Assembly (NCBI GenBank): GCA_963662285.2
Contig: CAXXMV010000002.1
Span: forward strand, 480,001-544,000
Length of the DNA stretch: 64,000 bases
From: a bacterium
GTDB lineage: Bacteria; Hinthialibacterota; Hinthialibacteria; Hinthialibacterales; Hinthialibacteraceae
Direction of reading: 5' to 3'
Part shown: one piece after another, positions 28,908 through 59,590 of the stretch
How the letters are laid out: each line of letters begins with the position of its first letter
How positions within the stretch are numbered: the first letter of the stretch is position 1
The notes under the pieces: model-generated
The model's database searches: none
What the model saw: only the letters and a program-made list of their open reading frames with translations
What the model was told of the DNA's origin: nothing
Position numbers and translations under genes: made by a program

Positions 28908-31832
28908 ATGCTGTATCGGACTACACTTATTGTTGCTTTTTGCGTTTTTTTCTTTTGCGGGCAGTTGTCTTATAGCGCTATAGAACTTATTGACCAACCG
29001 GAGAAACCCGCTCATATTGTCGGAACGATTTATACAATCGCTCAACAATCTCCTATCATCGAGCATGTCACTGGTTGGGGTTCATATTTGTATTTATCGG
29101 TGCGCTATTTGAATGGAGATCAGAAACTAGAAGTATGGGATGTGCGTGATCCGGCCCATCCGGTCTTAAGCGATTCTCTGGATTTTGGCAATCTCGTTTC
29201 TCAACCCACCAATCATTGGAAATTCCCCAGCGTCAATGTATTTGATGATAAAATTGTAGTCCGGTCAAATTTCCAGGATTATGTTTACTATCATGCGCCG
29301 GATGGACAACTAATCCTATCAGGTTCTCATGATTTTGCGGCTTCCATAGGTGAAATAAAGAACAACGAAGAATCTCTTTTTATGAGTTCTGCGTCCAGTT
29401 ATGGTACATTTTTTGGCCGATTATTTGATCCTGGTGACGTATTGCCTGAAGAAGAATATGGATACTTAATTCTTAATTTCACCAATCCGGAAAATCCGTT
29501 TGTATCCACTCTCGTTCCCCCGAGTTCTAAAGAAATTATGCAGCAACAGTTTGGCGGTCACCTGACCGGTTCATTAGAAAATAATCCCGCTGTTATTCAT
29601 ACTAATGGAAACCAGATTTCGATTAACGCCCGCAAAGTTAAAGCTGATAGCCACATCGATATCTTTTGGGAACCGCATCTACCAGAAATTTTCAATATGG
29701 AAACCCTGGACCGCACTGTGCGTTCCCAGATCGACCATATTGTCGGACAACAATCGTCTATCGAACTGCTTTCTAGCGTAATAGACCAATTTTTCGATTC
29801 CCTTGAGATCGAAGATTCGCTAACTATAGAAGATTCCATTCTCCGTGGTTACCAGCAAAATGCTGAACTGGCATCCATTTTTGAGGATTATGACATTGAC
29901 TTGGATCAAAGCGTACGGGTTGCAATAGAAAAGGTTATTTCCTTTCACATGACGCTTGATCTGGAAAAAGAGTTATCCAAAGAATTATTCGGTCCGGTAT
30001 TATCGAATTGGACTGATAATCTATTTATTTTGTCTACCAACGGCACGCGGGATGACCTGAAAACCTCAATAACCAGTATCCTGAACGATGGACTATCAAA
30101 AGAGACCGTCGCCCGTTTTATTCTGGATAAATTTATTGCGCCCTATGTCGATGTTCCCGATTGGATGTATTGGACTATGGATGACATAGTTGACCAGATT
30201 GTTAATTCTGTACCGGGAGAAATAATTAGCGCAAGTATCTATGCAGCAAATCAAATGCTTAACGCTGATGGATTTCTAGAATTTGCATTAAGTCTCGTCC
30301 CGCCAGCAGAAAAATTCTATTTACCAGCGGGTTTTCCTGAAGATTGCCGGGATGTATTGGAATACGCCTTTTACGAATATGGGGCCAAATTGGATCGCGA
30401 AGGTCTCGCTTTTATGGAAATGTTTAAGTTCTATGAGTATTACAACGGCAACGAGAACTACTTGGATTTCAACCAGGAATTTGCCGACGCCGTGGCATAT
30501 ATACAGGATAATTTATCCGATTCAGTAGTGGAAACTATTGAACCTTTCATGTCCTCTTTATCCTTCATCGGGGATATCCAGGAGCGCCTGGAAGCATTTG
30601 CCAGTGGGTTTTCTTGCAAAGAAACTATTTCATTAGCCATTCGGGATGCGGTTATAGCCCGGCTGGTTGATGCCGAAATCAATGTTGATATGTCTCTTCG
30701 CGATGTGTTGAAAGAACATAGTTTATACCTCGACTGGGCGGATATTAGTGGAGATGCAAGCGGTGGTATAGCCCAAGTAAATGATTTCATTCAGGTATTA
30801 CAGGACGATTTGAATGAATCGCAGACCTCTATCCGCTCTCTGTGGAATGAAGGCAAACATTATCCCATCCGGATTGAAGAAGCTTGCCGCAAGGTCCTTG
30901 CGGAATCTTTAGAAGAAGCCTGGGGAGAATTGGATCTCGATAATCCTATGATAACATCTCTTAGGGGATTTCTTGGCAATCATGTGGATTACCGCTGGAC
31001 CTTCGGGCAAGGTATGGATGACCTAATGAAAGATTTCGCTTTTAGTTGCTTAAGCGAGTATCCCCCCTTTCTAGATAACCTTGGCCTTTTCAAGCGAGCG
31101 CAAGATGGAGATGTAATTGCGAGATGGCAGATTACTTTCCAGATTGCTAAAACCATTGCTGCTTCAAATCCATTTACTGAGGATAAAGCAATTAGTTATG
31201 AAATCATCGAGACAGCGCTCGAAGAGGCCTATGAGAAAGCCATTACCAATATTATTAAAGCTTTACTCATGGAGTTTGCCCAGGTTATGATGGGTGATAT
31301 GTTCGGAAGTTTTTCAACATGGGCTACCCGGACAGACCCCATATCTATGACCTTTGACGCCGCAGAACTTACTTCGTTAGATTCAGTGAGAAACGAATCC
31401 TTTGTATGGAAAAAGCAAGCCGGATTAGTCGCTAGAGAATCATGGGATTACTTACATGCTCGCAAACTATCTCTGACCCTGTTCAATCCCGATAATCCCA
31501 TTGAAAGCAAGCAGGAAATTATCTTTGATGGATGGGGCGGCGTTGATTATATTCATTTCCATCAGGGTAATGTTCTCGTCTGTGGTTCAATGTACGAAGG
31601 ATACGGCGTCTGGCCTACCGCCATGCTAGCGTCAATTTCCAAAGACCGTGTTGAGATTAACCGACTTCGGGCTTTCGGACTCGCTTCCTCCGAAGGCTTG
31701 ACCAGCGTCAACCATAACGCCCACCTGGTGTTTTACGGACCAGCGGGAATATTTCTGGTAACCAACCCGCTAACCGTATCTCCTGCGCAACAAATACCCG
31801 ATACGGGTATTTGTGACTGGATGTGTTACTAA
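28908..31832 (+). CDS. Large secreted hypothetical protein (LVIVD-like N-terminus, acidic helical core, C-terminal W-x-x-Y motif)
   Basis: GGAGG RBS, signal peptide, YLYL...LEVWDVRDPAHP; ends TGICDWMCY. Confidence 0.75.
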   Translation: MLYRTTLIVAFCVFFFCGQLSYSAIELIDQPEKPAHIVGTIYTIAQQSPIIEHVTGWGSYLYLSVRYLNGDQKLEVWDVRDPAHPVLSDSLDFGNLVSQPTNHWKFPSVNVFDDKIVVRSNFQDYVYYHAPDGQLILSGSHDFAASIGEIKNNEESLFMSSASSYGTFFGRLFDPGDVLPEEEYGYLILNFTNPENPFVSTLVPPSSKEIMQQQFGGHLTGSLENNPAVIHTNGNQISINARKVKADSHIDIFWEPHLPEIFNMETLDRTVRSQIDHIVGQQSSIELLSSVIDQFFDSLEIEDSLTIEDSILRGYQQNAELASIFEDYDIDLDQSVRVAIEKVISFHMTLDLEKELSKELFGPVLSNWTDNLFILSTNGTRDDLKTSITSILNDGLSKETVARFILDKFIAPYVDVPDWMYWTMDDIVDQIVNSVPGEIISASIYAANQMLNADGFLEFALSLVPPAEKFYLPAGFPEDCRDVLEYAFYEYGAKLDREGLAFMEMFKFYEYYNGNENYLDFNQEFADAVAYIQDNLSDSVVETIEPFMSSLSFIGDIQERLEAFASGFSCKETISLAIRDAVIARLVDAEINVDMSLRDVLKEHSLYLDWADISGDASGGIAQVNDFIQVLQDDLNESQTSIRSLWNEGKHYPIRIEEACRKVLAESLEEAWGELDLDNPMITSLRGFLGNHVDYRWTFGQGMDDLMKDFAFSCLSEYPPFLDNLGLFKRAQDGDVIARWQITFQIAKTIAASNPFTEDKAISYEIIETALEEAYEKAITNIIKALLMEFAQVMMGDMFGSFSTWATRTDPISMTFDAAELTSLDSVRNESFVWKKQAGLVARESWDYLHARKLSLTLFNPDNPIESKQEIIFDGWGGVDYIHFHQGNVLVCGSMYEGYGVWPTAMLASISKDRVEINRLRAFGLASSEGLTSVNHNAHLVFYGPAGIFLVTNPLTVSPAQQIPDTGICDWMCY

Positions 31833-31876
31833 ATCAGTTATTAACAAGATATAATCGTTTATTAACGCGTTAAGTA

Positions 31877-31911
31877 TTCGAAAAAGCCAATCTTTATCTG
31901 GCTTTTTCGAA
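31877..31911. terminator. Rho-independent terminator
   Basis: ttcgaaaaagcca...tggctttttcgaa. Confidence 0.7.
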
Positions 31912-32197
31912 ACGCGAATAAGAATGTTATTATGCCTGACGCGCTAGACGAAATTTTGCCTGCACAAAATAGGAATAGCAACCTAAATATTGCTCATCGT
32001 GGTTTAACAGATGACTATTGATTTGGACGAGAGGATATGATATAAAGGCAATATCGTTATCTATATAAGATTGATATTTTCGGAAGATTTTTTCCCGTTG
32101 GATTCAAGAATTGGTCATTTGGAGTGGATGGATTGTTTCATTAAGATAGTGACTTTGTTTGAGCCGATTGGTTGTAATTACATATTGGAGGAGAACG

Positions 32198-33427
32198 ATG
32201 TCAGTCGTCACTTTTTTCTGTGGCTCATATTGTAATGGGAAAGATATCGCTAAGCGCACAGCGCAAGAACTGGGATACGTCTTCACCAAAAAAGAGATTC
32301 TTGAGAACGCTTCAGCTCAATACCAGGTTTCCTATGATAAACTGGAGCGAGCGTTGCATGGGGCCACTTCTTTACTGAATAGCGTGACTCAGGAGCGGGA
32401 AAAATGCGTGGCTTATATTAAAGCCGCTTTAGCAGAGTATTTAAAAAAAGACGGTTTTGTCTATTGTGGTTACGCCGCCCATCTATTGCCTAAAACGCTT
32501 AATCATGTTCTCCGGGTTTGCGTCGTCGCGGACCGCGACTATCGGATCAGGCAGGCCATGGAGATCAGTTCGCTGACTGAAAAACAGGCCGTTCAACAGA
32601 TCGAACGCGATGACGAACTGCAGTGTCAATGGACCCAATATCTGTTCGATACCGGTCCGTGGGATCGAAAACTATACGACATCAAGATACCTCTTCATAC
32701 CATGAGCGTCGACGACGCCGTTGCGTTGATTTGCGAAAACGTCCGGAAAGAGACGCTTCAAACCACCATTGCTTCGCAGCAGGCCGTCGACGATTTTATC
32801 CTCTCCTCGAAAGTGAATATCGCTCTGATCGAAAAAGGTTACATTGTTGATACGAGCTGTGATGCCGGGCAGATTATCATCACGATCAACAAATTCACCT
32901 GGCGTTTGGAGCGGATGAAAGCAAAACTCACCGAAATTGCTCATACCGTGCCGGGTGTAACCGATGTAGTAACCCGCATCGGGCCTCATTTCGACCGTCC
33001 CCGGATTTCTCCACTCGACTTCGAAGTTCCTTCTCAGGTGTTGTTAGTTGACGATGAGAAGGAATTTGTTTTGACTCTATCCGAACGCCTTAAGATGAGA
33101 CAAATTCCATCTCAAGTGGTTTACGATGGGGAAGCCGCTCTGTCGTTCGTCAAAGATGAAGAACCGGATGTGATTGTGCTAGACTTGAAGATGCCGGGGA
33201 TACAGGGAATGGACGTTTTACGACAGGTAAAGCGGGATCATCCCAACATCGAAATCATCATTCTAACAGGGCATGGTTCTGAGAAGGACGAAGAACTGAC
33301 CCGCGACCTGGGCGCCTTCGCATACTTACAGAAACCGGTTGATATCGATAAACTGGCCGAAACCATGAAGGCCGCATACGAAAAAATTCAAAAGCAAGCA
33401 ATCTCACAGTCAGATACCGAATCCTGA
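32198..33427 (+). CDS. Cytidylate-kinase-like domain fused to a response regulator receiver
   Basis: N-terminal Cytidylate_kin2-like region; C-terminal LLVDDE...LDLKMP...LTGHG...KP; GGAGG RBS before 32198. Confidence 0.85.
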   Translation: MSVVTFFCGSYCNGKDIAKRTAQELGYVFTKKEILENASAQYQVSYDKLERALHGATSLLNSVTQEREKCVAYIKAALAEYLKKDGFVYCGYAAHLLPKTLNHVLRVCVVADRDYRIRQAMEISSLTEKQAVQQIERDDELQCQWTQYLFDTGPWDRKLYDIKIPLHTMSVDDAVALICENVRKETLQTTIASQQAVDDFILSSKVNIALIEKGYIVDTSCDAGQIIITINKFTWRLERMKAKLTEIAHTVPGVTDVVTRIGPHFDRPRISPLDFEVPSQVLLVDDEKEFVLTLSERLKMRQIPSQVVYDGEAALSFVKDEEPDVIVLDLKMPGIQGMDVLRQVKRDHPNIEIIILTGHGSEKDEELTRDLGAFAYLQKPVDIDKLAETMKAAYEKIQKQAISQSDTES

Positions 33428-33453
33428 TTCGCATAGGGCTATCATCCAACCTC

Positions 33454-35181: not shown

Positions 35182-35187
35182 CGAATT

Positions 35188-35562
35188 ATGAAATCTTATA
35201 GCGTCTTACTTGTCGATGACGAAGCGGAACTGGTCTATACCCTGGCCGAACGGCTTGTATTCCGGGGGATTGATACAGCTGCGGTTACAGATGGAAATGC
35301 CGTTTTAAACATCTTGGATCAACGGGAATATGATATCATTGTTTTGGATGTCATTATGCCTGGTTTGAATGGGATTGAATTGATGAAAACGATTAAGCAG
35401 AATCACCCCAAAATCCAGGTTATCCTTCAAAGTGGTCGGGGTACACAAGAAGAGAGTATAGAAGGTTTGCGCGAAGGCGCATTCGATTATCTCGTTAAGC
35501 CTGTCGATATCGACATGTTAATCAAGAAAATGGATCAAGCCATGGAATTATCAAATCGGTGA
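35188..35562 (+). CDS. Single-domain response regulator
   Basis: LLVDDE, LDVIMPG and KP motifs. Confidence 0.92.
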   Translation: MKSYSVLLVDDEAELVYTLAERLVFRGIDTAAVTDGNAVLNILDQREYDIIVLDVIMPGLNGIELMKTIKQNHPKIQVILQSGRGTQEESIEGLREGAFDYLVKPVDIDMLIKKMDQAMELSNR

Positions 35563-35569
35563 CTGTAAT

Positions 35570-36229: not shown

Positions 36230-36278
36230 TCGGGATCAACCGCTTGCATTCGTTCATATATCAAAATGGAGTCTGGCG

Positions 36279-36710: not shown

Positions 36711-36740
36711 AACAGGCCTTTCTTTGGAAGGATTAAACTG

Positions 36741-39465: not shown

Positions 39466-39924
39466 TCACAAAAGTAGTAGTTCATGCAAAGCAAGTTCTT
39501 TAATGCGGTTGGCTAGCAGGGGGATTTCTTCTTCGACTTTTGGCGAAAATCCTTCACCCAATCCAAAATCCTCTCCGCATATAGCTGAGAGGAATGCTTT
39601 TGGTTGTTTACCATATAGGCTTTGTGATAATGATAGTAAAACTGAGGGATTTATATGATGGGTGAATGCGCTGGAAGTGATGGTCTCGGCTTCCAGTTCT
39701 CTTATGGAAGATGCGCCAGGTTCTCCGCCTTCCTCTGCATCAACGAATATAACAACTCTAGCCCGGCTTAATTCTTCCGCCAAATCGGGAGTTAATTGGT
39801 GATAGGCGTCGGCTTCAATATGGTCATTATACAGATTTTTTTCTATCCACTCCACAATTTCCCAACCGGCGCCATCATCTCTCCTTAGCGGATTGCCATA
39901 CCCTATAATCAAGACGTTCGGCAT
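39466..39924 (-). CDS. hoxW: Hydrogenase maturation protease
   Basis: GYGNPLRRDDGAG, HQLTP, FVDA and HH motifs; follows hoxH. Confidence 0.9.
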   Translation of the reverse strand: MPNVLIIGYGNPLRRDDGAGWEIVEWIEKNLYNDHIEADAYHQLTPDLAEELSRARVVIFVDAEEGGEPGASSIRELEAETITSSAFTHHINPSVLLSLSQSLYGKQPKAFLSAICGEDFGLGEGFSPKVEEEIPLLANRIKELALHELLLL

Positions 39925-41348
39925 TAGTCTCTTTGAACCTGATCGACAATAATTCCATCTCTATCAATCAGTTGAATCTGCATCTGCATTTTTCCAAGTG
40001 AATGAGTTGAACAGCTTAAGCATGGATCGAAGGCGCGAATCACTGCTTCAACGCGATTCAACATTCCTTCTTTAAGTTTATTGCCATCCACAAAGTGCTT
40101 GGCTACTTGCAGGACGCCGCGATTCATAGCCAGGTTATTGTGTCCGGTTGCTATAATCAGGTTGGCATGAGTCATTAAACCATCTTCGTTTACTTTGTAA
40201 TGATGAATCAATGTACCGCGCGGCGCTTCAGATATTCCGACGCCTTCCAAATTATTCGTCCCGGCGAATGCTCTGACGCGCTTGCTTAAGATATCAGGAT
40301 CTTCGAGCAGAATTTGTATTTTTTCCAAGGCGTAAAGAATCTCAATTAATCTCGCATAATGATAATGGAACGAACTAAGCACTACGCCGCGTCCTAAGGC
40401 GCGAAATTCAGCCCATTCCTGGTTGGCTAATGGAGTGCCGCAACTTTCGATTACATTAAGTCTGGCTAATGGTCCAACGCGATAGATTCCTTCTGGATAT
40501 CCGGTTGGTTTATAATAAGGGAATTTCAGGTATGTCCAGGGTTCAACCGCTTCGCCAATATAATCTGAATACTTACTGGCTTTTTTCATATCGGCAACAA
40601 TCCTACCCGATGCATCAACAAAGCGTAGTTTGCCATCGTAGTGCGCCAGTTCGTTTGCCGGATTGACTAATGCCATAAAGAGCGAAGGGAAATTAGCAAA
40701 AGTTCTGGTCTCTTCATGGTAATCATCCAGCGACCGCTTAAACCATTCCAGGGTTTTTTGTATAACGGTTAGCGCATCGGGAATTCCATCAAGAATATGG
40801 TCGCGTAATTCAACCGACAAAGGCTCGTTAACGCCTCCAGGAACCACCCAGGCGGGATGGATTCTTTTGCCGCCCAGCGACTGAATAATTTCTTGTCCGA
40901 ATTTTCTTAAATAAACGCCGTCTTTGGCGATTTCTGGAAATTTATTAAGCAGACCAATGACATTACGGTCTTTGGGATCAGCGTCCATTCCCAAGAGGAA
41001 ATCAGGTGACGACAGATGAAAGAAACTCAAAGCATGGGATTGTACGATCTGAGCGAGATTCATCACTCTTCGTAAATTGGCCGCCGTCTCTGGAATGGAG
41101 ACCGCTAATATTGCGTCGCACGCTTTGGCGGAAGCCATCAAATGACTTACCGGACAGATGCCGCATATTCGAGCCATCAAAGAAGGCATTTCTGCAAATG
41201 GACGCCCTTCGCAAAATTTCTCGAACCCACGAAACTGGGTTACATGAAACATGGCGTCATCAACATGTCCCTCGTCATTGAGATGAATGGTGATTTTGGC
41301 ATGTCCTTCAATGCGTGTTACGGGATCAATTACGAGTTGCTTCCCCAT
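39924..41348 (-). CDS. hoxH: Bidirectional NiFe hydrogenase large subunit (group 3d)
   Basis: TRIEGH, L1 RICGIC, EAPRGTL, L2 DPCLSCSTH plus a cleavable tail. Confidence 0.96.
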
Positions 41349-41359
41349 GCTCTCTTCTC

Positions 41360-41893
41360 CTAAAGGCCAAAGCGTGTTATATCGCTCAGGTCGGGAATTC
41401 GTCCTTCAATCAGTTCACATAAAGCGTGATATATAACATCCGCCGGCGGAGGGCATCCTGGTATGAATACATCCACCGGGACAATCTCACGTATTGGGCG
41501 GGCGCGAGGCAGCAATGCGGGAATCAAGGTATTGGGATGCATAGGATTTAGGTCGGCGTTCTCTTCATAGGCTCGTTCCATAATCGCTGGTACGCCGAAT
41601 TGATTCCGCATAGCCGGGACGTTAGCCGTAACAGCGCAGTCGCCCAATGCTACAAGAATTTTGCTCCTCTTGCGTAACTTTTGTATTTTTTTCAAATCAT
41701 CTTCATTACTGACCGCTCCTTCAACAAGGGCCAGATCAAGATTTTTGGGAATGGACTTAAAATCAACCAGTGGACCATAGAGAATATCAATATTTTCGGC
41801 CAAATCAATCAGGCGTTCATCTATATCCAGCAGCGACATGTGGCAGCCGGAGCAGCCATCCAGCCAAGTGGTTGCAACACGCAGTTTTGTCAT
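41360..41893 (-). CDS. hoxY: Bidirectional hydrogenase small subunit
   Basis: [16 protein letters not shown] and PGCPP motifs. Confidence 0.95.
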
Positions 41894-42612
41894 TCCTTTT
41901 CCTCCCGCATGATCGTCAAATAGGGCAAAAATTCTTGCTGTTTGGCCATTTCAGACGCCGACTTTCCTTTTTCAACCAATGCGCCGGTCGGACAGACATG
42001 GACGCACTTCCCGCACCCGGTGCAGGTTTCTGACGTGCCCCAGGGCTGATTCAGGTCGCAAATAATTCTGGTATCAACGCCGCGTCCCATCACATCCCGC
42101 GTATGAGCGCCTTCAATCTCAGCGCATACTCTTACGCAACGGGTGCATAAAATGCATCGGTTATGGTCCATGATAAACCGGTCATGCGAGGCGTCCACTT
42201 CCAGATTGGGGAAACGGTATGGGACGTGAATATGGGTCATACCCAGTTTTTGGGTTAGAGACTGTAACTCGCAATGACCATTTGATACGCAAACCGAGCA
42301 GACATGATTCCGTTCTGAAAAAATCAATTCAAGAATAGTGCGTCGATAACGAGTCAGGCGATCTGATTTAGTAATTATCTGAACGCCTTCTTCTACTTTA
42401 GTGACGCATGCCGGATAAAGTTTAGGACGACCGGCAATCTCCACCATGCACAACCGACAGGCGCCGACTGGCGTTAATCCATCGACATGGCACAAAGTAG
42501 GGATAAAAATACCGTTTTCCTTCGCCACAGTGAGAATCGACTCGTCTTCACGAGCGCTCACATCACGGTCATCAATCCGGAATGTAAATATGCGAACCTT
42601 AGAGCTCATCAA
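41890..42612 (-). CDS. hoxU: Diaphorase Fe-S subunit
   Basis: IPTLC, GACRLC, HVCSVC, CILCTRC and [10 protein letters not shown] motifs. Confidence 0.95.
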
Positions 42613-42620
42613 TGGTCTCC

Positions 42621-44240
42621 TTAGGCTGTTTTAACCGCTTCGGCTACTTCAACCAATTTAGATTCATATTCCTTGCGGAAAAAGCGCAGCGTACTGATTA
42701 CTGGATTCGGCGCCGTCTGCCCTAATCCACAAAGACTTGTGTTTTTAACGACTTTGCATAATTCTTCTAATAATTCCAGGTCGTTGCGAGATGCCTTGCC
42801 TTGAGAAATCCGGTCAAGAAGGGTGTGCATCTGGTCAGTGCCCACACGGCAGGGGACGCATTTGCCGCACGATTCCGACATACAGAATTCCATGAAATAT
42901 TTAGCTACATCCAGCATGCTGGATGATTTATCCATGATAATCATACCGCCTGAACCCATTATCGATCCAAGTTTAGACAGCGAATCATAATCAACCGGCG
43001 TATCCAAATGTTCTTCAGGGATGCAGCCGCCAGACGGCCCCCCGGTCTGAACCGCCTTAAAGGGCTTATCACCGGGAATGCCTTCGCCAATTTCGAAAAT
43101 TATCTCTCTAAGCGACATGCCCATCGGCACTTCGATTAGGCCGGTATTATTAATACAGCCCGCCAGAGCAAAGACTTTAGTGCCCTTGCTTTTTTCAGAG
43201 CCGATTTCTGAAAACCACTCTGCGCCATTACGGATAATTGGAGCAATATTGGCGAATGTTTCGACATTATTAATTAAAGTTGGTTTGCCCCACACGCCTG
43301 ATTCAGCTGGATAAGGCGGCCTGGGTTTGGGTGAACCACGATGTCCTTCAATTGAGGCAATTAAAGCTGTCTCCTCACCACAAACAAACGCGCCTGCTCC
43401 CAAGCGAACGTCAATATGAAAGCCGAATGGCGTTCCCATAATGTTCTTGCCCAACAAAGCAAGCCGCTCAGCTTGCCTTATGGCTAAACGCAGTCGCTTG
43501 ATGGCGAGGGGGTATTCTGCGCGAATATAAATATATCCATGATCCGCACCCACCGCGTAAGCGGCCAGCGCCATTCCTTCTAAAACCCGGTGCGGATCGC
43601 TCTCGAGAATGCTTCGATCCATAAAAGCGCCCGGATCGCCTTCATCTGCATTACATACAATATATTTTTGGTTGCCGAATGCTTTTGATACGGTGCTCCA
43701 TTTCAATCCGGTGGGGTATCCGGCGCCTCCACGCCCACGAAGACCGCTGGCGAAGATTTCTTCGATCACCTCGCTGGGGCTCATATTAGTCAGCGCTTGT
43801 ATCAACGCATCATAACCGCCAACGGCAATCGCGTCTTCGATCTTTTCTGGATCTATCACGCCGCTATTTTCCAGAACGATCTTCTTCTGCTGTTGGAAGA
43901 AAGGAATCTTCATGGAGCATTTTAAGCGCTTGACTGGCTTGCCGCCTAAATTCTTCACAATATCTTCGGCGTCTTTTTCAGTTACGTTTTGATAAAGCGT
44001 CTTGCCTTCATCAACAGTCAATAAAGGCCCTTTCGAGCATAATCCCAAACATCCGACTCCTTTAACTTCACATGAATCTTGCAGTCCCTTATTTTTGACT
44101 TCTTCCGCTATAGAATTCAGAACTTTATCACTGTTAGCGGATAAGCAAGCGGCGGCGGTGCAAACGCAAATGTGATGTTCTTTCTCTTTATGCGCTTTTT
44201 GGTGTTCCTCGGCAATGCTCTGTATTTCTTCAGGATTCAT
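42621..44240 (-). CDS. hoxF: Diaphorase flavoprotein (NuoF-like)
   Basis: [28 protein letters not shown] and [10 protein letters not shown] motifs. Confidence 0.95.
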
Positions 44241-44736
44241 CGCTCTTCCACCTTTGAACTCGTTTAACTACTTCATCTGGTTTCAAATTGCCTATAACTT
44301 CACCATCAAACACGGCGACAGGAGCGAGTCCGCAAGCTCCGACGCAACGCGCAGTAATCAATGATACCTTGTTATCTGGAGTGGTCTCTCCAGGCTTTAA
44401 CTGAAACTTTTCTTCTATTGCATGCAAAATCTTGGGAACCCCTTTTATATAACAGGCGGTTCCGGTGCACAACACGCAAGTATGTTCGCCGGGTGGCTTC
44501 ATACTGAAATAATGATAAAAAGTAGCAACACCATAAACCTGAGATAGAGGAACTCGTAATGAAGCAGAGATAAACTCAAAGGCCTCTTCATCCAGATACC
44601 CAAACACCTCCTGTACTGTATGCAGCGTCTCGATAAGCGAGCTTGCTTTATGTCCGTGACGTCGCATTGCAGCGCCAACCATTTTCCAGCGCTTATCATC
44701 TGTTGGTGGAGAGGGTTTGGAAAAATTTGTATGCAT
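44230..44736 (-). CDS. hoxE: Diaphorase 2Fe-2S subunit (NuoE-like)
   Basis: GVATFY, CTGTAC and CVGACGLAP motifs. Confidence 0.95.
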
Positions 44737-45109: not shown

Positions 45110-46219
<1,110 letters not shown>

Positions 46220-50089: not shown

Positions 50090-50096
50090 ACATAGT

Positions 50097-50195: not shown

Positions 50196-52721
50196 CTAAT
50201 ACAACGACCAATTACTGACTGGCGTTTGCAATACAGTACTTAAATACTCCCGGCGCAAGCGTACGAATGTACGAAGAGTTTCGTAGGATTCATTAATCTG
50301 GCTTCGACGATCATCTCGCTCTCCACCCATTTGCTCTTCGAGCAGCAGCAAATCTGCCAGCAGAAATTGCTCAATCTCATCAATTTTGCTATACATCCGC
50401 TCTTCACTGAACGAATTATTGAATTCATGTGTTAAGCGATCAATATACTCCTGGTGTAAAACATTATTGTTGTGCAATCTACCTGTTACAGGACCAGTGG
50501 AGCGTGAGGCATGAGCGGCCTGTCCATTAAGCGGGAAATTAACCGGCATTTCTGCAAACATATGATTTGAATCAGTGTATCCCCATGTTTTATCTAAATC
50601 CCACGGAATTATCTCCCATTTTTGGGTATCGGGATCGAGGTACATCCAGTTATTGTTATGGAAACCATCCCAGTTGCTTGATAAAACTGAAGCTACGCTA
50701 TATGCCAAAAATTCATCGATCACTAAATTAGTGGTTAATGCTTCATAAAGTTCATCCTGATCTCTAGGTTTAAGCGCTATGGCCAATGCATCAATACTGT
50801 CAGTTCCATTTTCTAGATTGGTATGCGGTTCCCACAGCGGATTGACATAGTTTCGTTTAAATAAATCGGCATCGGGATTTCGGTCATTCATTTCCAAAAA
50901 GCGCTCGTTAATTTGTTGTATTAACAATTGCTGAGTTTGATATCCGTCGGTAATTACGCGGAACCAATCCGTGCGGGGAGACGGGATGCCGAATTCCCAG
51001 AAAAACCAAAATCCGAAATCTTCGCGATGCGGAGTGCTGGGTCCGGCAGTTGTGCTGCCAGATGGACTCTCTGGCAACATATTCAAAGTCCGGTCGCCAC
51101 GGAACTCTTCACCTTTCAGGAATTTAAGTTTATTTCCATTCCTGGAGGGATAGATCAGCGCCCCATCGAACACAAGAGGATGTTCTTCACCAACCGGCAA
51201 AATCACGGCGCCGCTTACATTGCGGCTCATTTCCGTCAATTTGGTTTGCCCCATGTTGTATGGCCAAAGAACCGGTAATAAAGATTGAATTTCTCCATCA
51301 TAAACAAAGTATGATTCGAAAGGTCTGAGAGTTGTTACATACGGTAAAGTCAATGGAGAACCATCATCCAGAGTGACGATAGCATTGAATCGAACCAGCG
51401 TTTGAGAATCCACAGGAGGAATTTGCGCCTCAAATGTAACAGTATCAATATCTTCCGCTAACCAGTTCATTACAATCCGGTTAAGTTTATCCTCCCCGCC
51501 GCTGGTTCTTTCACCTTCTAACAGATAAACGCCAGTACCATATGAACGGCTATCCAAGTCGCTGGTTAATCCGACTAAAGCTATTGTATTTTTGCCATTC
51601 TTCAGCAAACCGCTTGAATTATCAATTTGATACAATTCGGGTGTATTTAAGTCGTGACTTTTGGTTGCGATAGAATCGTGGGTCACTATTTCAGGAACAT
51701 TCTCACGGGCTACTTCAACGCCATTCAAGTAGCACACAAATCCTCCAGAAAAAAATACATACAAATAAGTGTTCGCTAATGTATCCGCATCTGGAATGGT
51801 AAACTCGCGGCGCAGGTAGACAGTTGAGTATTTACTCCTCATATCTATTAGTTGCGTAGATATCATATTGTTACCACCGTAACCATGCATTCCATTTCCC
51901 TGCTGCCAGGAAGAATCATCAAATTCAGGTTTTGTCCAATCTTTTCCTTCCGATGGTTCTTCTAAGCCTTTAGCATACCGGAACCTATCAAATCCAACTA
52001 CATACATCTCGGGTTGATTTGAGTTACCGCCAGTTCCCTGAACGGCTTCTTCCCACTGCAAGGTCACTGAATTAATGATGCTCGCTCCATCGAAATTCAA
52101 ACTAATTGTTACGTTATCCTTTGAAGTTGGATGTTCAGGAGTTATGTCGTGCGCAATGATCATAGGGCGGGGTTTGGCGTTGATTACTGAATTAACTGCT
52201 CCCGGAGTTCCATCACTCATCCATGAAGCCCGCCAACTATGATGGTCATCGGCAGGTAAATCCCATGAAATTCGTTCAAGAGTTGATCCATACCCATCAG
52301 AAGTTCTCGGCCAGGGTGGATTATCGTTATACTTAAGTTCCTCCACCACTGTTCCATCAGGTCGAACCAGGGTTAACCGTTCGCCGCTATTTGATAATAA
52401 ACCCTCATATGGTCCTAGAATGGATGAAGGGTTGCCTCGCCAGGTTCTTTGTTCAGGATCACGCGCCAAGATTAAATATTTCCCTGATTCCAAGACGGTC
52501 GCATCCGGGAAAGTAAAAGTAATGCCTTTGGTGAATTGATACCCCGATAGATCGATTGATTCCGGGCCGGGATTATACAATTCAACAAACTCGCGAAGAG
52601 AACCAGCCGTATATTGTACGTCAGTCGGGTTGTAACTAATTTCGTTAATCACTACATCCGCATATACAGCAAAGAAACTCACGCACATAAATAACGCCAG
52701 GCAAAAAAATCTTTTAATCAT
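50196..52721 (-). CDS. Secreted lamin-tail-domain / CotH kinase family protein
   Basis: Signal peptide from MIKRFF, VVINEISYNP...EFVELYN (LTD), NWDGFHNN and IPWDLD (CotH); ends TPVSNWSLY. Confidence 0.85.
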   Translation of the reverse strand: MIKRFFCLALFMCVSFFAVYADVVINEISYNPTDVQYTAGSLREFVELYNPGPESIDLSGYQFTKGITFTFPDATVLESGKYLILARDPEQRTWRGNPSSILGPYEGLLSNSGERLTLVRPDGTVVEELKYNDNPPWPRTSDGYGSTLERISWDLPADDHHSWRASWMSDGTPGAVNSVINAKPRPMIIAHDITPEHPTSKDNVTISLNFDGASIINSVTLQWEEAVQGTGGNSNQPEMYVVGFDRFRYAKGLEEPSEGKDWTKPEFDDSSWQQGNGMHGYGGNNMISTQLIDMRSKYSTVYLRREFTIPDADTLANTYLYVFFSGGFVCYLNGVEVARENVPEIVTHDSIATKSHDLNTPELYQIDNSSGLLKNGKNTIALVGLTSDLDSRSYGTGVYLLEGERTSGGEDKLNRIVMNWLAEDIDTVTFEAQIPPVDSQTLVRFNAIVTLDDGSPLTLPYVTTLRPFESYFVYDGEIQSLLPVLWPYNMGQTKLTEMSRNVSGAVILPVGEEHPLVFDGALIYPSRNGNKLKFLKGEEFRGDRTLNMLPESPSGSTTAGPSTPHREDFGFWFFWEFGIPSPRTDWFRVITDGYQTQQLLIQQINERFLEMNDRNPDADLFKRNYVNPLWEPHTNLENGTDSIDALAIALKPRDQDELYEALTTNLVIDEFLAYSVASVLSSNWDGFHNNNWMYLDPDTQKWEIIPWDLDKTWGYTDSNHMFAEMPVNFPLNGQAAHASRSTGPVTGRLHNNNVLHQEYIDRLTHEFNNSFSEERMYSKIDEIEQFLLADLLLLEEQMGGERDDRRSQINESYETLRTFVRLRREYLSTVLQTPVSNWSLY

Positions 52722-52981
52722 CTTATACTCCATCTTGATTTGAGTTATTAGAATAATTCTGGTGGAGAACAATGTAATCATTCTCTGATTACTTAAACGT
52801 GTTTCTTCTCATATATATACGAATATAAACTGTAAATTGTTCAATAAAAAAAATTATTGAACAATTTACCTATATAGTTTGTTGAATGAATTTAAGAAAT
52901 GGATTTGTTCTACTATTGCATGAATATATAATAAAAATAGTATACTAATTCACTTACATGGAAATTTTCATATACGTAATT

Positions 52982-53007
52982 CGGGGCGTGGATTAATCCA
53001 CGCCCCG
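52982..53007. terminator. GC-rich palindrome after sucC
   Basis: cggggcgtggattaatccacgccccg. Confidence 0.65.
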
Positions 53008-53035
53008 GTTAACAATAATCCTTGTTAAAAACTAA

Positions 53036-54199: not shown

Positions 54200-54303
54200 T
54201 CCAGAACTCCTTTCACCAACCGTCAGCGTGTTATGCAAAATGATGTTCATATTTATGATATAAAACGAACATCATTTTGTTAACCGCTCTTGCCAACACC
54301 GGA

Positions 54304-56976
54304 TTATTTTGAATCCGGTTTTTCGTTCTCATTTATTGTATCATTACTATCTTTTGTAATTTCTTTGAGTTTCGACTCAATTTCTATTAGTTGATCTTCT
54401 AATTCTTGATTTTTATCTTGTAGTTTATCTATTAGCCCGGCGTTTTTGCCAGATAAATCGCTCTCGTGGTCACGGCGAATTTCAGAAATAGCTCGTTTCG
54501 CCTCGTTGCGAATGTTTTCCTTACCATCATTACTCTCGATCCATTGCAATTGAGAGATGGCGTCTTCATGGCCTAATGATTGTAAACCGGAAACTGCTGC
54601 GCTTCGGATAGATGGTGAAGATGATTTCAAGTAGTTCAAAAGCAGATTCAAGGCGCTTGATTGATTTTTCTTGGTTTCACCCGCCAATCGACCTAATCCC
54701 CTGATAGCGGTTGTGCGTAAGTCTCTATGATAAGGGTCTTTAGAGAAACTTTCCAGGTCGCTGAATACTTGTGGTTCTTTGAGGTCTACCAGCGTATTCA
54801 AAATTGAGGATTGCATCTGATGTCTCCATGAATTGCGTTTTAATCCTGATTTTAATACTGAATAGACCTTCTCCGGTTTTAAGCGGGCCAGCGTTCGCAC
54901 GGCGCTGGATGCCACGCTATTGCTGGGATCATTTTTTATTATATCGATCAACACATTAATTACTTCTTTATCTTTATAAAACCCCCGCAGGGAATTTACA
55001 ACCTTACCCCTCACTTTTGGCTCATTATCTTTTAGTAGAGACAACAGGGCTTCTTTGGCTTCGGCGTCTCTTTCTTTGCCCAAAACATCGATGGCTTCGA
55101 GCCGCACGCGGAGGTATGGATCGTTTTTAGCAGTTTTCAGCAGCGCCTCCCGGACGGTTTTATTCCTGCGGTCGGTCAATTTTTGAACCGCACGGATACG
55201 GATAATAATGGTTGAACCGTTTTCCAGGTCATAGAGCAGCATATCCTGTGATTTTTCATGCTCTTGTTCCATCAATGCCCGTAGGCGGTGGTTTAGATTG
55301 ATGCTTTTAGGGGCATTAGGGCAATCGATGAAGATGCTCTCGTCTTTTTTGGTGATTTCAATCTTCTTCTCAATGGTTTGGTCTTCAGTGCGGATTTCAA
55401 TTTCCAATGGAAATGCGAAAGCTGGTTTTCCTTCTTCCATCTTCTGGGTCTGTTTCAGCGTCAATTTGACCTGCTTGCTTTCTGGCAGCCATTGGTGTTC
55501 GATTTTCAAAACAGGGTGTCCGGGGCCATAGACCCATTGCTCAAAAAAGCGGTCCATTGACCGTCCTGTAACTGTTTCAAACGATTCCATTAGATCATCG
55601 CTATCCACCAGACCGGGCGCGTTTTGATTGAGGTAATGGTTCAAACTCTTGCGGAACAGATCGTCGCCCAGCTGATGCCTTAGGATATGCAGGACGCTGG
55701 CGCCTTTAGGGTATGAATGACTGTCGAACATCTCTCCGGCGTCTTCAAACTGGTTAGATACTATAGGGCGCGTGTAACTCCGCGCTTCGCCGAAATAACT
55801 GCTCATTTTGTTCATCATAGCTTCCAGGTAAGCGTCTTCTCCCTTGGTATGCTCAACCCAAAGAGCATCTGAAAGTGTGGCGAATCCCTCGTTGAGCCAT
55901 AATTCGGGCCATGACTGGCAGGTGACCAGATCGCCGAACCATTGGTGAGCCAGTTCGTGCATGATCAGCCCTTCCATGTCATTATCCTGCCGGGCGTTCT
56001 GATCCATTACAATCCATTCATGCATGGTGGTGGCCGTGGTATGCTCCATGCCTCCAGCGTGAAAATAACGCACGGATGACTGGGCGTATTTTTCGTAGGG
56101 ATATGGATAATCCAGGTAGTTGCTGAAAAACTCGATCATATCCGGCGTCATGCCCATGCTGGGGCGGGCATCCTTTGCTTGACCTTTGGCTACGTAATAT
56201 TCAACTGGTTTGCCGCGCCATTCGTCGCGTACAATATCAAAATGCCCTACCACCAGACTGATCAGGTAGGTCACATGGGGTATTTTCTGTTTCCAATGAT
56301 CGGTGCGCCAGCCGCCTTCAGTTTTAGAATCGATCATCAGGCCGTTGGAGAGGGTGACGAAATCCTTGGGGACGCTGACAAAGACTTCGGTAGTCATGCG
56401 GTCGTTGGGGTAGTCGCCGCATGGGAACCACGATGAAGCGCCGAATGGTTCTGACAGGGTGTACATCTGGTCGGCTGTTTTGGGGGCTGATTGTTTTTCA
56501 TTGGAAAAGAACATGCCTCCACCGAAGCGGCCGCCGACATTCAGTACATTGGCTTCATAGGATACTGATAAGGTTATGTCCTCACCCATCGCCAAAGGCT
56601 TGTCGAAATTTATATAGATGGAATTATCCGAATATGTCCAATCAAGTTTCTCCGCTAATGAACTGTTGACCTCATTGATAGTCATGTCATAAGCGTCGAG
56701 CCGAACTGAGGTTACATTCTCATGAATGGGTTGCAACTGGTAATGAGCCGTTCCTTCGACTGATTGTTGATCCATCAGTATCTTGATCTCAAGTTTAAGA
56801 TGCTCAAAATCAACCGTACGGTCAGGACGATAGTGGCGTGGATATGCGCCATCGGTCATCTTGGCTGGAAACAAGGCGTGATTGTGCGCCATGTCTCCCG
56901 CATGAGCCGCAACTACTCCACCAAAAGCCAACAAAGCAAGCAATAAACCAGCGATACAACGAGATAGTCGAGACAT
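54304..56976 (-). CDS. Secreted M1 family aminopeptidase with HEAT repeats
   Basis: Signal peptide; GGMEH, HELAHQWFG...WLNEGFA and SYPKG; C-terminal HEAT repeats and coiled coil. Confidence 0.92.
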   Translation of the reverse strand: MSRLSRCIAGLLLALLAFGGVVAAHAGDMAHNHALFPAKMTDGAYPRHYRPDRTVDFEHLKLEIKILMDQQSVEGTAHYQLQPIHENVTSVRLDAYDMTINEVNSSLAEKLDWTYSDNSIYINFDKPLAMGEDITLSVSYEANVLNVGGRFGGGMFFSNEKQSAPKTADQMYTLSEPFGASSWFPCGDYPNDRMTTEVFVSVPKDFVTLSNGLMIDSKTEGGWRTDHWKQKIPHVTYLISLVVGHFDIVRDEWRGKPVEYYVAKGQAKDARPSMGMTPDMIEFFSNYLDYPYPYEKYAQSSVRYFHAGGMEHTTATTMHEWIVMDQNARQDNDMEGLIMHELAHQWFGDLVTCQSWPELWLNEGFATLSDALWVEHTKGEDAYLEAMMNKMSSYFGEARSYTRPIVSNQFEDAGEMFDSHSYPKGASVLHILRHQLGDDLFRKSLNHYLNQNAPGLVDSDDLMESFETVTGRSMDRFFEQWVYGPGHPVLKIEHQWLPESKQVKLTLKQTQKMEEGKPAFAFPLEIEIRTEDQTIEKKIEITKKDESIFIDCPNAPKSINLNHRLRALMEQEHEKSQDMLLYDLENGSTIIIRIRAVQKLTDRRNKTVREALLKTAKNDPYLRVRLEAIDVLGKERDAEAKEALLSLLKDNEPKVRGKVVNSLRGFYKDKEVINVLIDIIKNDPSNSVASSAVRTLARLKPEKVYSVLKSGLKRNSWRHQMQSSILNTLVDLKEPQVFSDLESFSKDPYHRDLRTTAIRGLGRLAGETKKNQSSALNLLLNYLKSSSPSIRSAAVSGLQSLGHEDAISQLQWIESNDGKENIRNEAKRAISEIRRDHESDLSGKNAGLIDKLQDKNQELEDQLIEIESKLKEITKDSNDTINENEKPDSK

Positions 56977-57131
56977 GAACCATACCCTCCAAGTATAAAG
57001 TGATGCAAGGATTATAAACCTCAAAGGCTAAGGCGGGAGGGCGGATGGCTTTGTGTTGTTGATATTTGGATTAACCGGGGTGGTGGATAAAAGGAGAAAG
57101 TGGTTTTTTACGCTCATTAAGTCAATATAAT

Positions 57132-57169
57132 GCAAAAGGGGTGCGTGAAAAATCACGCGCCCCTTTTGC
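57132..57169. terminator. Rho-independent terminator
   Basis: gcaaaaggggtgcgtga...tcacgcgccccttttgc. Confidence 0.8.
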
Positions 57170-57178
57170 TATGGGAAC

Positions 57179-59590
57179 TTATTGCCAAATGCCAATCTTG
57201 GCAGTTTGAGCCGATTCTTGCGCGGATTTAAATTCTTCTAGATAGGTCGTATCTTTCGATGACTGGATATAAACCGCGTATCCTAGTTCAACCAGTTTTA
57301 CATTGATATTGCGCTGATTGATGAAAAGATATACCTGTTTATTGTTGATCGATTTATCCGTATCAACAAATTCTACATATATTTCTTTCCCTTGAAGCCA
57401 TTTTTGCAGGAATTTGATCAATTCGCTATAAACGGCTTTGTTTTCAACCGGGAATTCTATATCTACCAGGCGAACGGTTTCTTCTTTTCCATTAATGATA
57501 ATCTTTATTAAACCATCCTCCATTACATTAAGTATTGTGCATTTGATGGATGATGGAATTATTCCCGGACCGGGTATTAATACATCGCCTGTATTTTCAT
57601 GGATAGACCAGTCATTAACGGGAACAGACATGCCAGGATCATTATCCTGATTCTGGGGCGGTTCGCCAACGGCATAATCAGATACTCCATCAGGCAATGG
57701 AACTGGTTGTTTGATCGTTTCTCCTTCTCCTCCTTCATTGCGTATGATGTAATCTACGGCGATAAAAGAAGTGTAGTTGGTTAACATGTTGTATTTTAAT
57801 CCAAGTTCGATTACCGCGCTGGCATTGTCGGGAAAACCCATAGCCCCATAGTCGTAATTGGTTTTGGCATCATAATCAGACAGCGTTTTTATGCGATGTC
57901 TGGCCCACAAATAGCGCAGGGCTTTATTGGATTCGTTCTCTAACTCAGGGCTTAGTTCATAGGTTTGTTCAAAAGGTCCATTACCGGTAAAACCTGATAC
58001 GGTGATTGATCCGGTTGGCTCGCCAATATATTTTCCAAACGCAATGATTGGCCGTTGAGTGAAAAGATCGGGAATAGCAGGCGGTTCGATATCATAGACC
58101 TCTAAGTCGCTGAAATTGATTTCTATTTGAGAAAGAACCGGATTTTGGATGTATTTTTGGAATTTAGTTATATTCTCATCAACTTCACCGGGATTGGTAA
58201 TAAAGAATGGTTCGCCTCTTCCAGCATAGGCCATGCCTTCAATGATGAAACGGTTGACGGATGTTCCGATTCCCAATGCGAATAAATTTGATAGGTTCAG
58301 TTTGTTACGGATCAGGTCGAAGGCCTCGTATTCAACTGTGACATAACCATCAGTGATGACAACAGTGGATCGTGCGATATCCTCAGATTGATGGGGGAGG
58401 TTGAAGGTTCTCTCCAAGGCTGGCAACAATCGCGTACCTCCCCCGCCGTACAAATTTCCTATACGTGTGATTGCATCATTAATGTTTGCCGGAGTGGCCG
58501 GGACTGAGGAATCGTACAATACCATGCTTCCGCCGGCGAATGTCAGCACATTGAAATAATCTGTAGGGCGTAACTCTTCAAGTAGTCCGAATATCAGTTG
58601 TTTGGCAGTATTCAGAGGGTATCCACTCATCGAACCGGAAACATCCAGCACGAAATTGTAATCCCGTGGTGGAATGATTGATTCAGTGATTTGATCCGGG
58701 GGTTCGACCATAACAAGAAAGAAATTCTCGTCTTCATGGCGATAAAGCAGAACGCCGGATTGAATGACGTCATCCTGTAAGTTGTAGCGCAGGATATAAT
58801 CCTTGGTTCCTGCTTTTTCTGTTGCATTGAGAATTATATCGGCCTGATACGGCGTCTCGTATTGGACATTGATGTCATGCATAACGGATGTGACGCTTTT
58901 GATGGGAATGCCGGATGAAATCGAAGCCGTAATGTTGTAATCGAATAAACTGTCTTCGCCCTCATGGGTGTATGGCGTTTCGATATATCCCTCTGAATCG
59001 TGAGAGCCTTCCGCAGGCGTTTCTGAATAACGCGGCCCGACCACGGTGGGATAAACGAATTCATACGTTCCATCTTCTGGAACCAGTAGTTCAACATAAT
59101 GAAGTTCGACGACGATCACATCGCCGGGCATGATATTGGCAACGCTCATCTGGAATACATTGGGACGTTGCTGTTCGAGAAGAGTGACGCTTTTTCCTTC
59201 GTCTTTGGCTTCATCGTATTCCTTTTGAGCCTGCTTTTTCTCGCGGATTTCCGCTTCGATCAGCCGGTCGCCGATTCGCATACTCATGGCGTGGACTGCG
59301 GCGCGGGTGGATGCCGGGAACACATAAATAGCCTCAATGGGGCGCGTTCCTTCGTTGGCGTAGGTCTGCTTGACGCTGACCGCCGCCATCACCCCGGCGA
59401 TTTGTGAATCTACCTCACAACTCTTAAGCGGAAGCTGATCCAGGGTTGGATCATCACTTTGAACATAGAAAAAAGGCGATAGGGTTTTATCTTCGTTTTG
59501 AACTTCCTGGGCGCTGGTATTCATTGCGGTGAGACCAGAAACTAAACAGGCGAGCAAAGTAATCAGGCAGATTGAACGGTTGGATTTCAT
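57179..59590 (-). CDS. Secreted VIT + vWA domain protein with a C-terminal thermonuclease (SNase)-like domain
   Basis: Signal peptide; EAIYVFP (VIT), MIDAS DVSGSM...TDG, YTSFIAVD; then EETVRLVDI...NINVKLVELGYA...AQ..KIGIW (SNase). Confidence 0.85.
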   Translation of the reverse strand: MKSNRSICLITLLACLVSGLTAMNTSAQEVQNEDKTLSPFFYVQSDDPTLDQLPLKSCEVDSQIAGVMAAVSVKQTYANEGTRPIEAIYVFPASTRAAVHAMSMRIGDRLIEAEIREKKQAQKEYDEAKDEGKSVTLLEQQRPNVFQMSVANIMPGDVIVVELHYVELLVPEDGTYEFVYPTVVGPRYSETPAEGSHDSEGYIETPYTHEGEDSLFDYNITASISSGIPIKSVTSVMHDINVQYETPYQADIILNATEKAGTKDYILRYNLQDDVIQSGVLLYRHEDENFFLVMVEPPDQITESIIPPRDYNFVLDVSGSMSGYPLNTAKQLIFGLLEELRPTDYFNVLTFAGGSMVLYDSSVPATPANINDAITRIGNLYGGGGTRLLPALERTFNLPHQSEDIARSTVVITDGYVTVEYEAFDLIRNKLNLSNLFALGIGTSVNRFIIEGMAYAGRGEPFFITNPGEVDENITKFQKYIQNPVLSQIEINFSDLEVYDIEPPAIPDLFTQRPIIAFGKYIGEPTGSITVSGFTGNGPFEQTYELSPELENESNKALRYLWARHRIKTLSDYDAKTNYDYGAMGFPDNASAVIELGLKYNMLTNYTSFIAVDYIIRNEGGEGETIKQPVPLPDGVSDYAVGEPPQNQDNDPGMSVPVNDWSIHENTGDVLIPGPGIIPSSIKCTILNVMEDGLIKIIINGKEETVRLVDIEFPVENKAVYSELIKFLQKWLQGKEIYVEFVDTDKSINNKQVYLFINQRNINVKLVELGYAVYIQSSKDTTYLEEFKSAQESAQTAKIGIWQ

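Follow-up and report, generated by a model that had tools for sequence, protein, structure and literature searches.

Why should three otherwise unrelated proteins with signal-peptide-like N-termini share nine residues centred on a tryptophan? The question is raised by a stretch of 64,000 nucleotides (assembly GCA_963662285.2, contig CAXXMV010000002.1, positions 480,001 to 544,000 of the forward strand), called the window here, in which two of these proteins end in the nonapeptide and the third carries it internally. A preliminary description of the window proposed it as a candidate signal with a role in secretion or anchoring. We have followed this nonapeptide tail through the genome, through orthologues of its carriers and through other genomes, and find it on about 150-185 exported proteins, i.e. 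about 3% of the genes in the genome. Judged from sequence comparison, it appears confined to one small phylum, most likely Hinthialibacterota (OLB16). The reading that we lean towards is that the tail is a signal recognised in trans, which sorts or retains proteins exported by Sec.

The first copy in the window, T-G-I-C-D-W-M-C-Y followed by the stop codon (31803-31832, plus strand), ends a 974-aa protein (28908-31832, plus strand) whose translated open reading frame (ORF) falls into no Pfam family; a weak ESM Atlas lead to LVIVD beta-propeller clusters has a score of 0.80, which is sub-threshold and below the reliable range. The second copy, T-P-V-S-N-W-S-L-Y with its stop codon (50196-50225, minus strand), ends a secreted protein with the Pfam domains LTD (8.7e-19) and CotH (5.8e-29), encoded at 50196-52781 on the minus strand. 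Both C-termini lie where the preliminary description had placed them. For the third copy, V-P-V-N-D-W-S-I-H (57599-57625, minus strand), the residues and coordinates had been given correctly and the C-terminal position had not. The copy forms residues 656-664 of a secreted protein with VIT, VWA_3 and SNase domains in Pfam (57179-59590, minus strand), and stands between the VIT-vWA body with its linker and a remainder of about 139 residues that includes the SNase domain (residues 705-803). All three proteins have the signal-peptide-like starts that had been described, as judged by eye. The earlier consensus retains its W-centred core of nine residues and loses its [PG] position, which is not conserved; the motif is better given as T-x-[VI]-x-[DNE]-W-x-[LI]-[YFH], or, with the residue after W specified, as T-x-[VI]-x-[DNE]-W-[SEM]-[LI]-[YFH].

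The genome to which the window belongs (G000) comprises 7.29 Mb in 8 contigs, with 44% G+C and an estimated completeness of 92.5%. A gene set was derived with a crude script of our own as the greedy non-overlapping longest ORFs, which gave 5831 'genes' from 20691 ORFs of at least 60 aa, and the 14860 overlapping shadow ORFs, having the same composition, were used as a control. Signal-peptide calls were likewise made by a crude script, and the 1831 of 5831 genes that it calls signal-peptide-like certainly include membrane proteins. The regular expression suggested in the preliminary description, [VI].[DN]W..[YFH].{0,2}$, matches 83 of the 5831 genes as against 1 of the 14860 shadow ORFs. The enrichment among signal-peptide-bearing proteins that was to be expected from it is found: the expression [DN]W..[YFH].{0,2}$ matches 83 of 1831 signal-peptide-like genes versus 13 of 4000 other genes (odds ratio 14.6, Fisher p 1.9e-29). 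Tryptophan at position -4 occurs in 166 of the 1831 signal-peptide-like genes, 5.9 times the background, compared with 1.5 times in the other genes, and over the last 12 positions V(-7), T(-9) and Y(-1) are raised 2.1, 2.0 and 2.1 times, in the signal-peptide-like genes only. A wider expression, [VIL]..W.[LIVMFC][YFH].{0,2}$, collects 146 of 5831 genes, 130 of them signal-peptide-like, versus 9 of 14860 shadow ORFs; these 146 tails are the set referred to below, and the genes carrying them are called tagged. A profile trained on the 146 finds 185 genes and 1 shadow ORF at 8 bits or more, a count that is circular for the 146 training genes and not for the control. The variants added by the profile have F or Y replacing W, or Q, K, E or N as the last residue.

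The position of the motif within the protein is equally distinctive. When T.[VI]..W.[LIVM][YFH] was sought anywhere in the gene set, 93 matches were obtained, 80 of them at the very end, 8 at one residue and 1 at two residues from it; shuffled proteins gave 5.6 matches in all. The excess of the tail stands at about 40-fold over shadow ORFs and about 17-fold over shuffles. Internal copies are very few in the genome, and two further proteins carry an internal as well as a terminal copy.

Information content in the 146 tails is limited to nine positions, W-5 to W+3, in accordance with the length of about nine residues given in the preliminary description, and its statement that there is no transmembrane helix also holds, with none after the tail in any of the 146. 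The hydrophobic positions -7, -4, -2 and -1 are conserved, as are T(-9) in 94 of 146 and D, N or E(-5) in 102 of 146, neither of which was set by the search definition. An aromatic residue is the last one in 125 tails (86%), with H last in 22 of the 146, and the other 21 have one or two extra residues (E in 8, D in 4, N in 3, Q in 2, K in 2, EE in 1 and Y in 1). Upstream of the tail lie three residues of a turn rich in P, G, E and D, and beyond these the sequence is hydrophobic like a last strand. At the DNA level, 144 of 146 tag-coding 27-mers are unique, with a mean nucleotide identity of 0.52 and all synonymous codons in use; selection therefore acts on the peptide and not on a DNA element, and a DNA repeat or cassette is ruled out by the same figures. 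Tails are found before all three stop codons, which rules out a recoded stop. An N-glycosylation sequon is ruled out as well, N-W-S being merely one among many variants.

Structure prediction with AlphaFold2 was carried out for two tagged families. For a family of 440-aa proteins made of two beta-sandwiches (8 sequences, predicted template modelling score 0.82), the predicted local distance difference test (pLDDT) falls below 50 at the tail residues 433-441, with a one-turn helix at 435-438. For the CotH protein of the window (84 sequences, most of them tagged; mean pLDDT 91.5), the last blocks drop to 63 and 51 after values of 96-98, and a helix is predicted at 835-840. From the low pLDDT in both models the tail is therefore taken to lie outside either fold. 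A helix as modelled would bring V(-7), W(-4) and Y(-1) to the same side of the tail.

Conservation was examined family by family. The 974-aa protein of the window is matched in 10 of the phylum's 34 other genomes, and all 11 closed C-termini, counting that of the window, contain T-x-[VI]-x-x-W. Nine of the ten orthologues end in Y (one of them plus an extra E) and one ends in W-M-I-R-R, while the 10-15 residues upstream of the tail vary freely. All 8 genomes with the 440-aa protein, drawn from four families, retain its tail, with V and W invariant. When the CotH half was compared with its 120 best database homologues, the strict tail was present in 94, a loose variant in 12 and neither in 14; of these last, 8 break off immediately ahead of the site, 2 have a few additional residues beyond it, and P0239 bears there the T9SS (type IX secretion system) C-terminal domain (CTD), PF18962. 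The internal copy of the VIT-vWA protein is kept in the same place, as [VA]-[PVG]-[VI]-x-[DN]-W-x-[LI]-[YH], by 7 database homologues (47-53% identity), which have different C-terminal modules after the motif. In a set of 120 VIT-vWA homologues, the C-terminus consists of a hydrophobic helix followed by a basic tail in 15, and of a TonB_C-like, ankyrin or other module in 97. Taken with the CTD of P0239, the helix and basic tail of the VIT-vWA homologues would make the site of the tail positionally equivalent to known anchors, as far as sequence allows this to be judged.

Two observations on the VIT-vWA family may be added. Its members swap the C-terminal module after the linker, which can be a transmembrane helix with a basic tail, a TonB_C-like, ankyrin or FlgD-Ig module, or an SNase domain. 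The tail motif is seen at this junction only in homologues of the present lineage.

The carriers are diverse, as the preliminary description had suspected from three examples. A random sample of 60, taken from the 112 carriers between 250 and 800 aa long, contains 83 Pfam families, no family being present in more than 5 carriers. The families include CBM9, LamG-like, beta-helix and beta-lactamase-fold domains, WD40 and other propellers and leucine-rich repeats (LRR), and further S9 and papain peptidases, esterases, a phosphatase, CotH and FG-GAP; the carriers are not beta-barrels. When NCBIfam was searched, as had been recommended, each family matched at E <= 0.01 was limited to at most 2 of the 60 carriers, and the tail is not covered by any model that the carriers share in Pfam or NCBIfam. 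Seven of the 40 longest ORFs listed (1607-2906 aa) are tagged. From their domain types the carriers would be the kinds of protein expected outside the cell or on its surface, the signal-peptide calls being those of the crude script.

Some families show endings of their own. LRR (internalin-like) paralogues at G000:C2:1810512-1814469 and C3:221729-223369 share a longer common end, Y-S-P-Q-N-N-x-D-P-Y...T-x-[VI]-x-[DN]-W-M-x-H, and one paralogue of this group has two copies of the tail about 25 residues apart. In a cluster of giant proteins at G000:C8:1017932-1054799, several proteins of 1656-2388 aa end in ...G-x-x-[YF]-[PA]-G-[STE]-[LI]-F-x-x, which may be a second C-terminal signal.

For the taxonomic range we used a codon-level pattern that encodes T-x-[VIM]-x-x-W-x-[hydrophobic]-[YFH(L)]-stop and captures about half of the tails, and the same pattern reversed as the control. 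The phylum is represented in the genome collection by one class with 35 genomes. In the window's own genome there are 82 matches, and 4 with the reversed control; the family's 19 other genomes have 20-77 (controls 0-5), two sister families of the order 7-41, and the families f4 and f5 of the class 4-27. Overall, 4-82 matches occur in 34 of the 35 genomes; the remaining one, G028, is the single genome of family f6 and has 1 match versus 1 in the control. In 271 genomes of other families, all at least 85% complete, 0-8 matches were found, no more than with the reversed pattern. Of these outside genomes 47 have a true PorU and are therefore T9SS-bearing, and the tail is not in them. The closest named homologues of the CotH protein, among the 120 best, are from 'Candidatus Hinthialibacter antarcticus' (62% identity), which agrees with the occurrence in Hinthialibacterota (OLB16) that the preliminary description had mentioned; some other homologues are labelled 'Candidatus Omnitrophota bacterium' or 'bacterium'.

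In G028, with 65% G+C against 44% here, a stretch of 400 kb (C1:1-400000) gave 358 ORF-genes, of which 40 are signal-peptide-like and none has W at -4; one small ORF has a tail-like end, and ORF calling is unreliable at 65% G+C. Searches of the tag-poor genomes for orthologues of the 440-aa and VIT-vWA proteins returned none, or distant paralogues only. This one genome of the deep family f6, G028, has almost no tailed proteins, yet pseudopilins, secretins and C25 peptidases are present in it.

The tail was compared with the C-terminal signals already known. With the T9SS CTD it shares the C-terminal position, the lack of a transmembrane helix, a cargo of dozens to hundreds of unrelated Sec-exported enzymes and adhesins, and lineage-wide use in diderm bacteria. 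The CTD, however, is a folded domain of 70-100 residues, whereas conservation in the tail is confined to 9 residues, as the preliminary description had pointed out. The CTD models (TIGR04183/PF18962) have 0 matches in the window's genome, a result that is weak alone since 14 control genomes are also silent, and SprA/Sov and PorV (TIGR04189, PF14349, NF033710) were not found in this genome, the controls being silent or sub-threshold. Within the phylum, 4 of 35 genomes have CTD matches, and almost all of these matches lie on short contigs from fragmented assemblies. A T9SS CTD is ruled out by the shortness of the tail and by the CTD, SprA and PorV not being found in the genome.

The tripartite signals of sortases, exosortases, archaeosortases, rhombosortases and myxosortases are alike in being short, lineage-restricted C-terminal motifs on tens to hundreds of unrelated secreted proteins. 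The panel set out in the accessible text of two sources (10.1101/2023.06.07.544157, PMC11980579) comprises LPXTG, PEP-CTERM, PGF-CTERM, GlyGly-CTERM and MYXO-CTERM. Such signals have a transmembrane helix and a basic cluster after the motif, whereas the tagged proteins end there or 1-2 residues later. A tripartite signal is ruled out because nothing follows the motif and because no NCBIfam family occurs in more than 2 of the 60 carriers.

The beta-signal of outer-membrane proteins, with the Y-x-F end read by the beta-barrel assembly machinery (BAM) and by DegS, likewise has an aromatic last residue on an exported protein. It is borne by barrels and alternates, whereas the tail stands behind soluble enzyme and binding domains and does not alternate. 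An ordinary BAM beta-signal, which the preliminary description had named as an alternative, is therefore rejected: the carriers are not barrels (by Pfam, and by models that show two beta-sandwiches or LTD plus CotH), the hydrophobic residues are at -7, -4, -2 and -1, and the genome's own BamA ends in the classical signal F-H-F-S-F-G-Q-S-F, i.e. F-x-F-x-x-x-S-F. The C-terminal signal of type I secretion is ruled out because 130 of the 146 carriers are signal-peptide-like, according to the crude predictor.

The signal recognised in trans builds on the motif, position, carriers, conservation and taxonomic range, which are established, and the binding and its effect are what we infer from them. 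In this model the tail would be a phylum-specific, flexible and helix-prone nonapeptide, held by about three linker residues behind the last folded domain. The carriers would reach the periplasm by Sec export, where a component of the envelope would bind the tail, and the bound protein would then be directed across, or held at, the outer membrane or the cell surface. As a sub-hypothesis, the route could be a secretin or type IV filament system similar to type II secretion (T2SS-like), with the aromatic tail docking on a pseudopilin-type receptor in the way that the type IVb pilus (T4bP) secretion signal docks on a minor pilin.

Among mechanisms we put this secretin/pseudopilin route first, at a low probability. 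The genome has 8 secretin genes and about 111 prepilin-type GspG-like paralogues, mostly of about 200 aa and with the common end S-N-G-x-x-S-x-G-D-I (examples L074-L078). A pseudopilin gene is the immediate neighbour of 19 of 146 tagged genes versus 76 of 1606 other signal-peptide-like genes (odds ratio 3.0, p 1.8e-4); random gene sets have 5.2 +/- 2.1 genes with an adjoining pseudopilin gene, and the pairs formed by tagged genes are on the same strand in 16 of 19 cases. A syntenic module of a tagged 440-aa gene, a GspG-like pseudopilin gene and a CbiX-like gene was found in 8 genomes from 4 families (G000:C2:1837348-1840248; L079-L085). Prediction of a complex between one tagged protein and the pseudopilin of its operon gave a score of 0.01 (mark 0.32), which speaks neither for nor against binding. 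It was also seen that the pseudopilin of the syntenic module ends in G-G-W-x-x-[HY], and that the CbiX-like protein has a signal peptide.

The model for such docking is the N-terminal 'T4bP secretion signal' of TcpF and CofJ, described in the accessible sections of PMC9565799 as a short and flexible peptide, about 11 residues long, in which an aromatic residue is essential; it docks on a trimeric minor pilin and belongs to a Sec-exported protein whose gene lies beside pilin genes and which is exported through a secretin. The tail resembles it in being flexible (low pLDDT in both models), in its aromatic centre (W by definition in the 146, and rarely F or Y among those that the profile adds) and in the enrichment of its genes beside pseudopilins. 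The T4bP signal, as described in those sections, is N-terminal and family-specific, with one substrate per system, whereas the tail is C-terminal and has about 150-185 substrates, 19 of 146 genes lie beside a pseudopilin, and docking on a pilin is hypothetical. It is unlikely, though worth stating, that the tail is the first linear signal by which a T2SS-like or type IV filament system exports proteins through a secretin or displays them on a fibre. A tagged protein would then dock on one of the roughly 100 GspG-like pseudopilins, or on their partner, and pass through one of about 8 secretins; if this is true, the system would be a pilus-based counterpart of the T9SS or of the cellulosome.

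Other recurrent neighbours of the tagged genes, named by eye, are two-component systems and Gfo/Idh/MocA-like and FGE-sulfatase-like genes, and these were judged to be general features of secreted-enzyme loci rather than partners. Inspection of the giant proteins revealed no repeated 'receptor' scaffold, and several of the giants are themselves tagged.

Several observations weigh against recognition in trans, and against the pseudopilin route in particular. Searches among neighbours and for T9SS, PDZ and pilin/secretin components found no receptor, translocon or processing enzyme, and our placement of the carriers outside the cytoplasm would follow from the crude signal-peptide script and from domain types. 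Only 13% of the tagged genes adjoin a pseudopilin gene, and in a further genome, G021, the figure is 3 of 16, in the same direction and not significant alone. The tag-poor genomes G028, G026, G029 and G033 also hold the pseudopilin expansion and secretins (3-9), so that neither tracks the abundance of the tag. The expansion is phylum-wide, with 38 to at least 103 matches per genome, obtained with a query that kept the N-terminal helix and lacked the last 31 residues and thus counts pilin-type genes generally. Finally, 21 of the 146 tails have 1-2 extra residues, mostly E or D, and there are a few conserved internal copies; a free carboxylate at the aromatic residue is accordingly not strictly needed, which fits the docking of a peptide.

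Two other readings would take the tail to be a device of attachment. By one of them it would be the substrate signal of a sortase-like, PorU-related C25 enzyme, which would cut it off and link the new C-terminus to a surface glycolipid, i.e. the attachment half of the T9SS working on a minimal signal and without the T9SS translocon. The window does encode a 1267-aa protein with Peptidase_C25 and CARDB (20515-24318, minus strand), whose gene is separated from that of the tagged 974-aa protein by genes for a GDP-mannose 4,6-dehydratase and an ABC-2 permease, and each of the phylum's 35 genomes has C25 proteins, typically about 1250 and about 1820 aa long. In NCBIfam the 1267-aa protein best matches the T9SS sortase PorU, NF033707 (E 7.9e-57, residues 347-926 against model positions 159-734 of 1095), but the 192.6 bits are far below the family cut-off of 420. 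PorV, SprA and CTD cargo were not found in the window's genome, C25 proteins are also present in the tag-poor G028, and PorU-like matches (E <= 1e-10) occur in 108 of the 271 outside genomes, none of which is tailed, so the enzyme is not specific to the tail. Since no leaving-group residues follow the tail, cleavage would moreover need a site upstream of it, and we consider this reading improbable. An equally small chance is given to a tail that inserts as an amphipathic turn into the outer membrane, or the outer leaflet of the inner membrane, as a small interfacial anchor and with no protein receptor. Trp and Tyr are typical interfacial residues, the hydrophobic residues are spaced i, i+3 and i+5/6, and the short helix is detached from the fold in both AlphaFold2 models; nine residues with 4 hydrophobic side chains would nevertheless be a weak hold for proteins of up to 2900 aa, the conserved polar residues at -9 and -5 (94 and 102 of 146) look like specific recognition, and restriction to one phylum is unexpected for a purely physical anchor.

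The tail could instead be a recognition tag for periplasmic PDZ proteases and chaperones (HtrA, CtpA/Prc-like S41), with a part in maturation, turnover or stress signalling and not in sorting. In having a hydrophobic or aromatic end with S(-3), the tail is similar to PDZ ligands and to the Y-x-F of outer-membrane proteins that activates DegS, and the genome encodes 4 HtrA-type proteases, one CtpA-like S41 protease, a tricorn-like S41 protease, RseP, a beta-helix-PDZ protein and a small PDZ protein. This is, however, the ordinary housekeeping set of most bacteria, with no GspC-like protein among its members, and it does not explain a phylum-specific tag. The 1-2 further residues in 21 of 146 tails and the internal copies are a point against PDZ binding, for which it counts that 86% of tails are terminal, and a tag for degradation or stress is hard to square with about 3% of genes, with giant adhesin-like carriers and with retention among orthologues; we rate it a shade below the two attachment readings. 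The tail may, at the far end, have no function in trans: it could be a structural cap, could result from common descent or from recombination of a DNA cassette, or could be due to chance. A hydrophobic beta-strand and a turn often precede it, and a hairpin with the last strand is conceivable, but the tail stands behind the helical (CotH) and beta-rich domains of 83 families and is of low pLDDT and detached in both models. A cassette or chance is countered by coding sequences of which 144 of 146 differ, at 52% mean identity, and by the roughly 40-fold and 17-fold excess. The counts have largely refuted an absence of function in trans, and we regard it as very improbable.

A full-text search of the literature, covering main texts, found no description of such a tail. 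In the main text of the paper naming the phylum (PMC9324843), the terms 'C-terminal' and 'sorting' each occur 0 times. Among C-terminal sorting tags the tail would be a further member, and categorically new if its machinery proves to have no relation to those already known. Such short tags have time and again opened the way to new sorting machines, namely sortase, exosortase, rhombosortase, myxosortase and the T9SS. If the tail is a sorting signal, a hitherto unrecognised recognition system would be at work in polysaccharide-degrading bacteria of lakes, sediments and wastewater reactors. In practical terms, the exoproteome or surface proteome of the phylum can be predicted from the tail by a one-line rule. 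In binning, the tail can act as a taxonomic marker too, since it singles out Hinthialibacterota contigs, some of them labelled 'Omnitrophota' or 'bacterium'. The number of tags per genome (1-82 pattern matches) is a clean variable for phylogenetic profiling towards a partner, for which G028 is a useful natural negative.

Two other loci of the window were noted. At 39466-44736 on the minus strand, a NiFe-hydrogenase large subunit is encoded in one operon with a NuoF-like FMN / 4Fe-4S subunit. This operon fits the report, in the accessible text of PMC9324843, of an NAD-coupled group 3 hydrogenase in Ca. Hinthialibacter. At 16359-18804 on the plus strand, a gene for an AAA_21 (AbiEii-like) ATPase is followed by a gene for 211 aa and then by genes for 85 aa and 76 aa. 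The last two, judged by eye, resemble a pair of the HicB/HicA antitoxin-toxin type.

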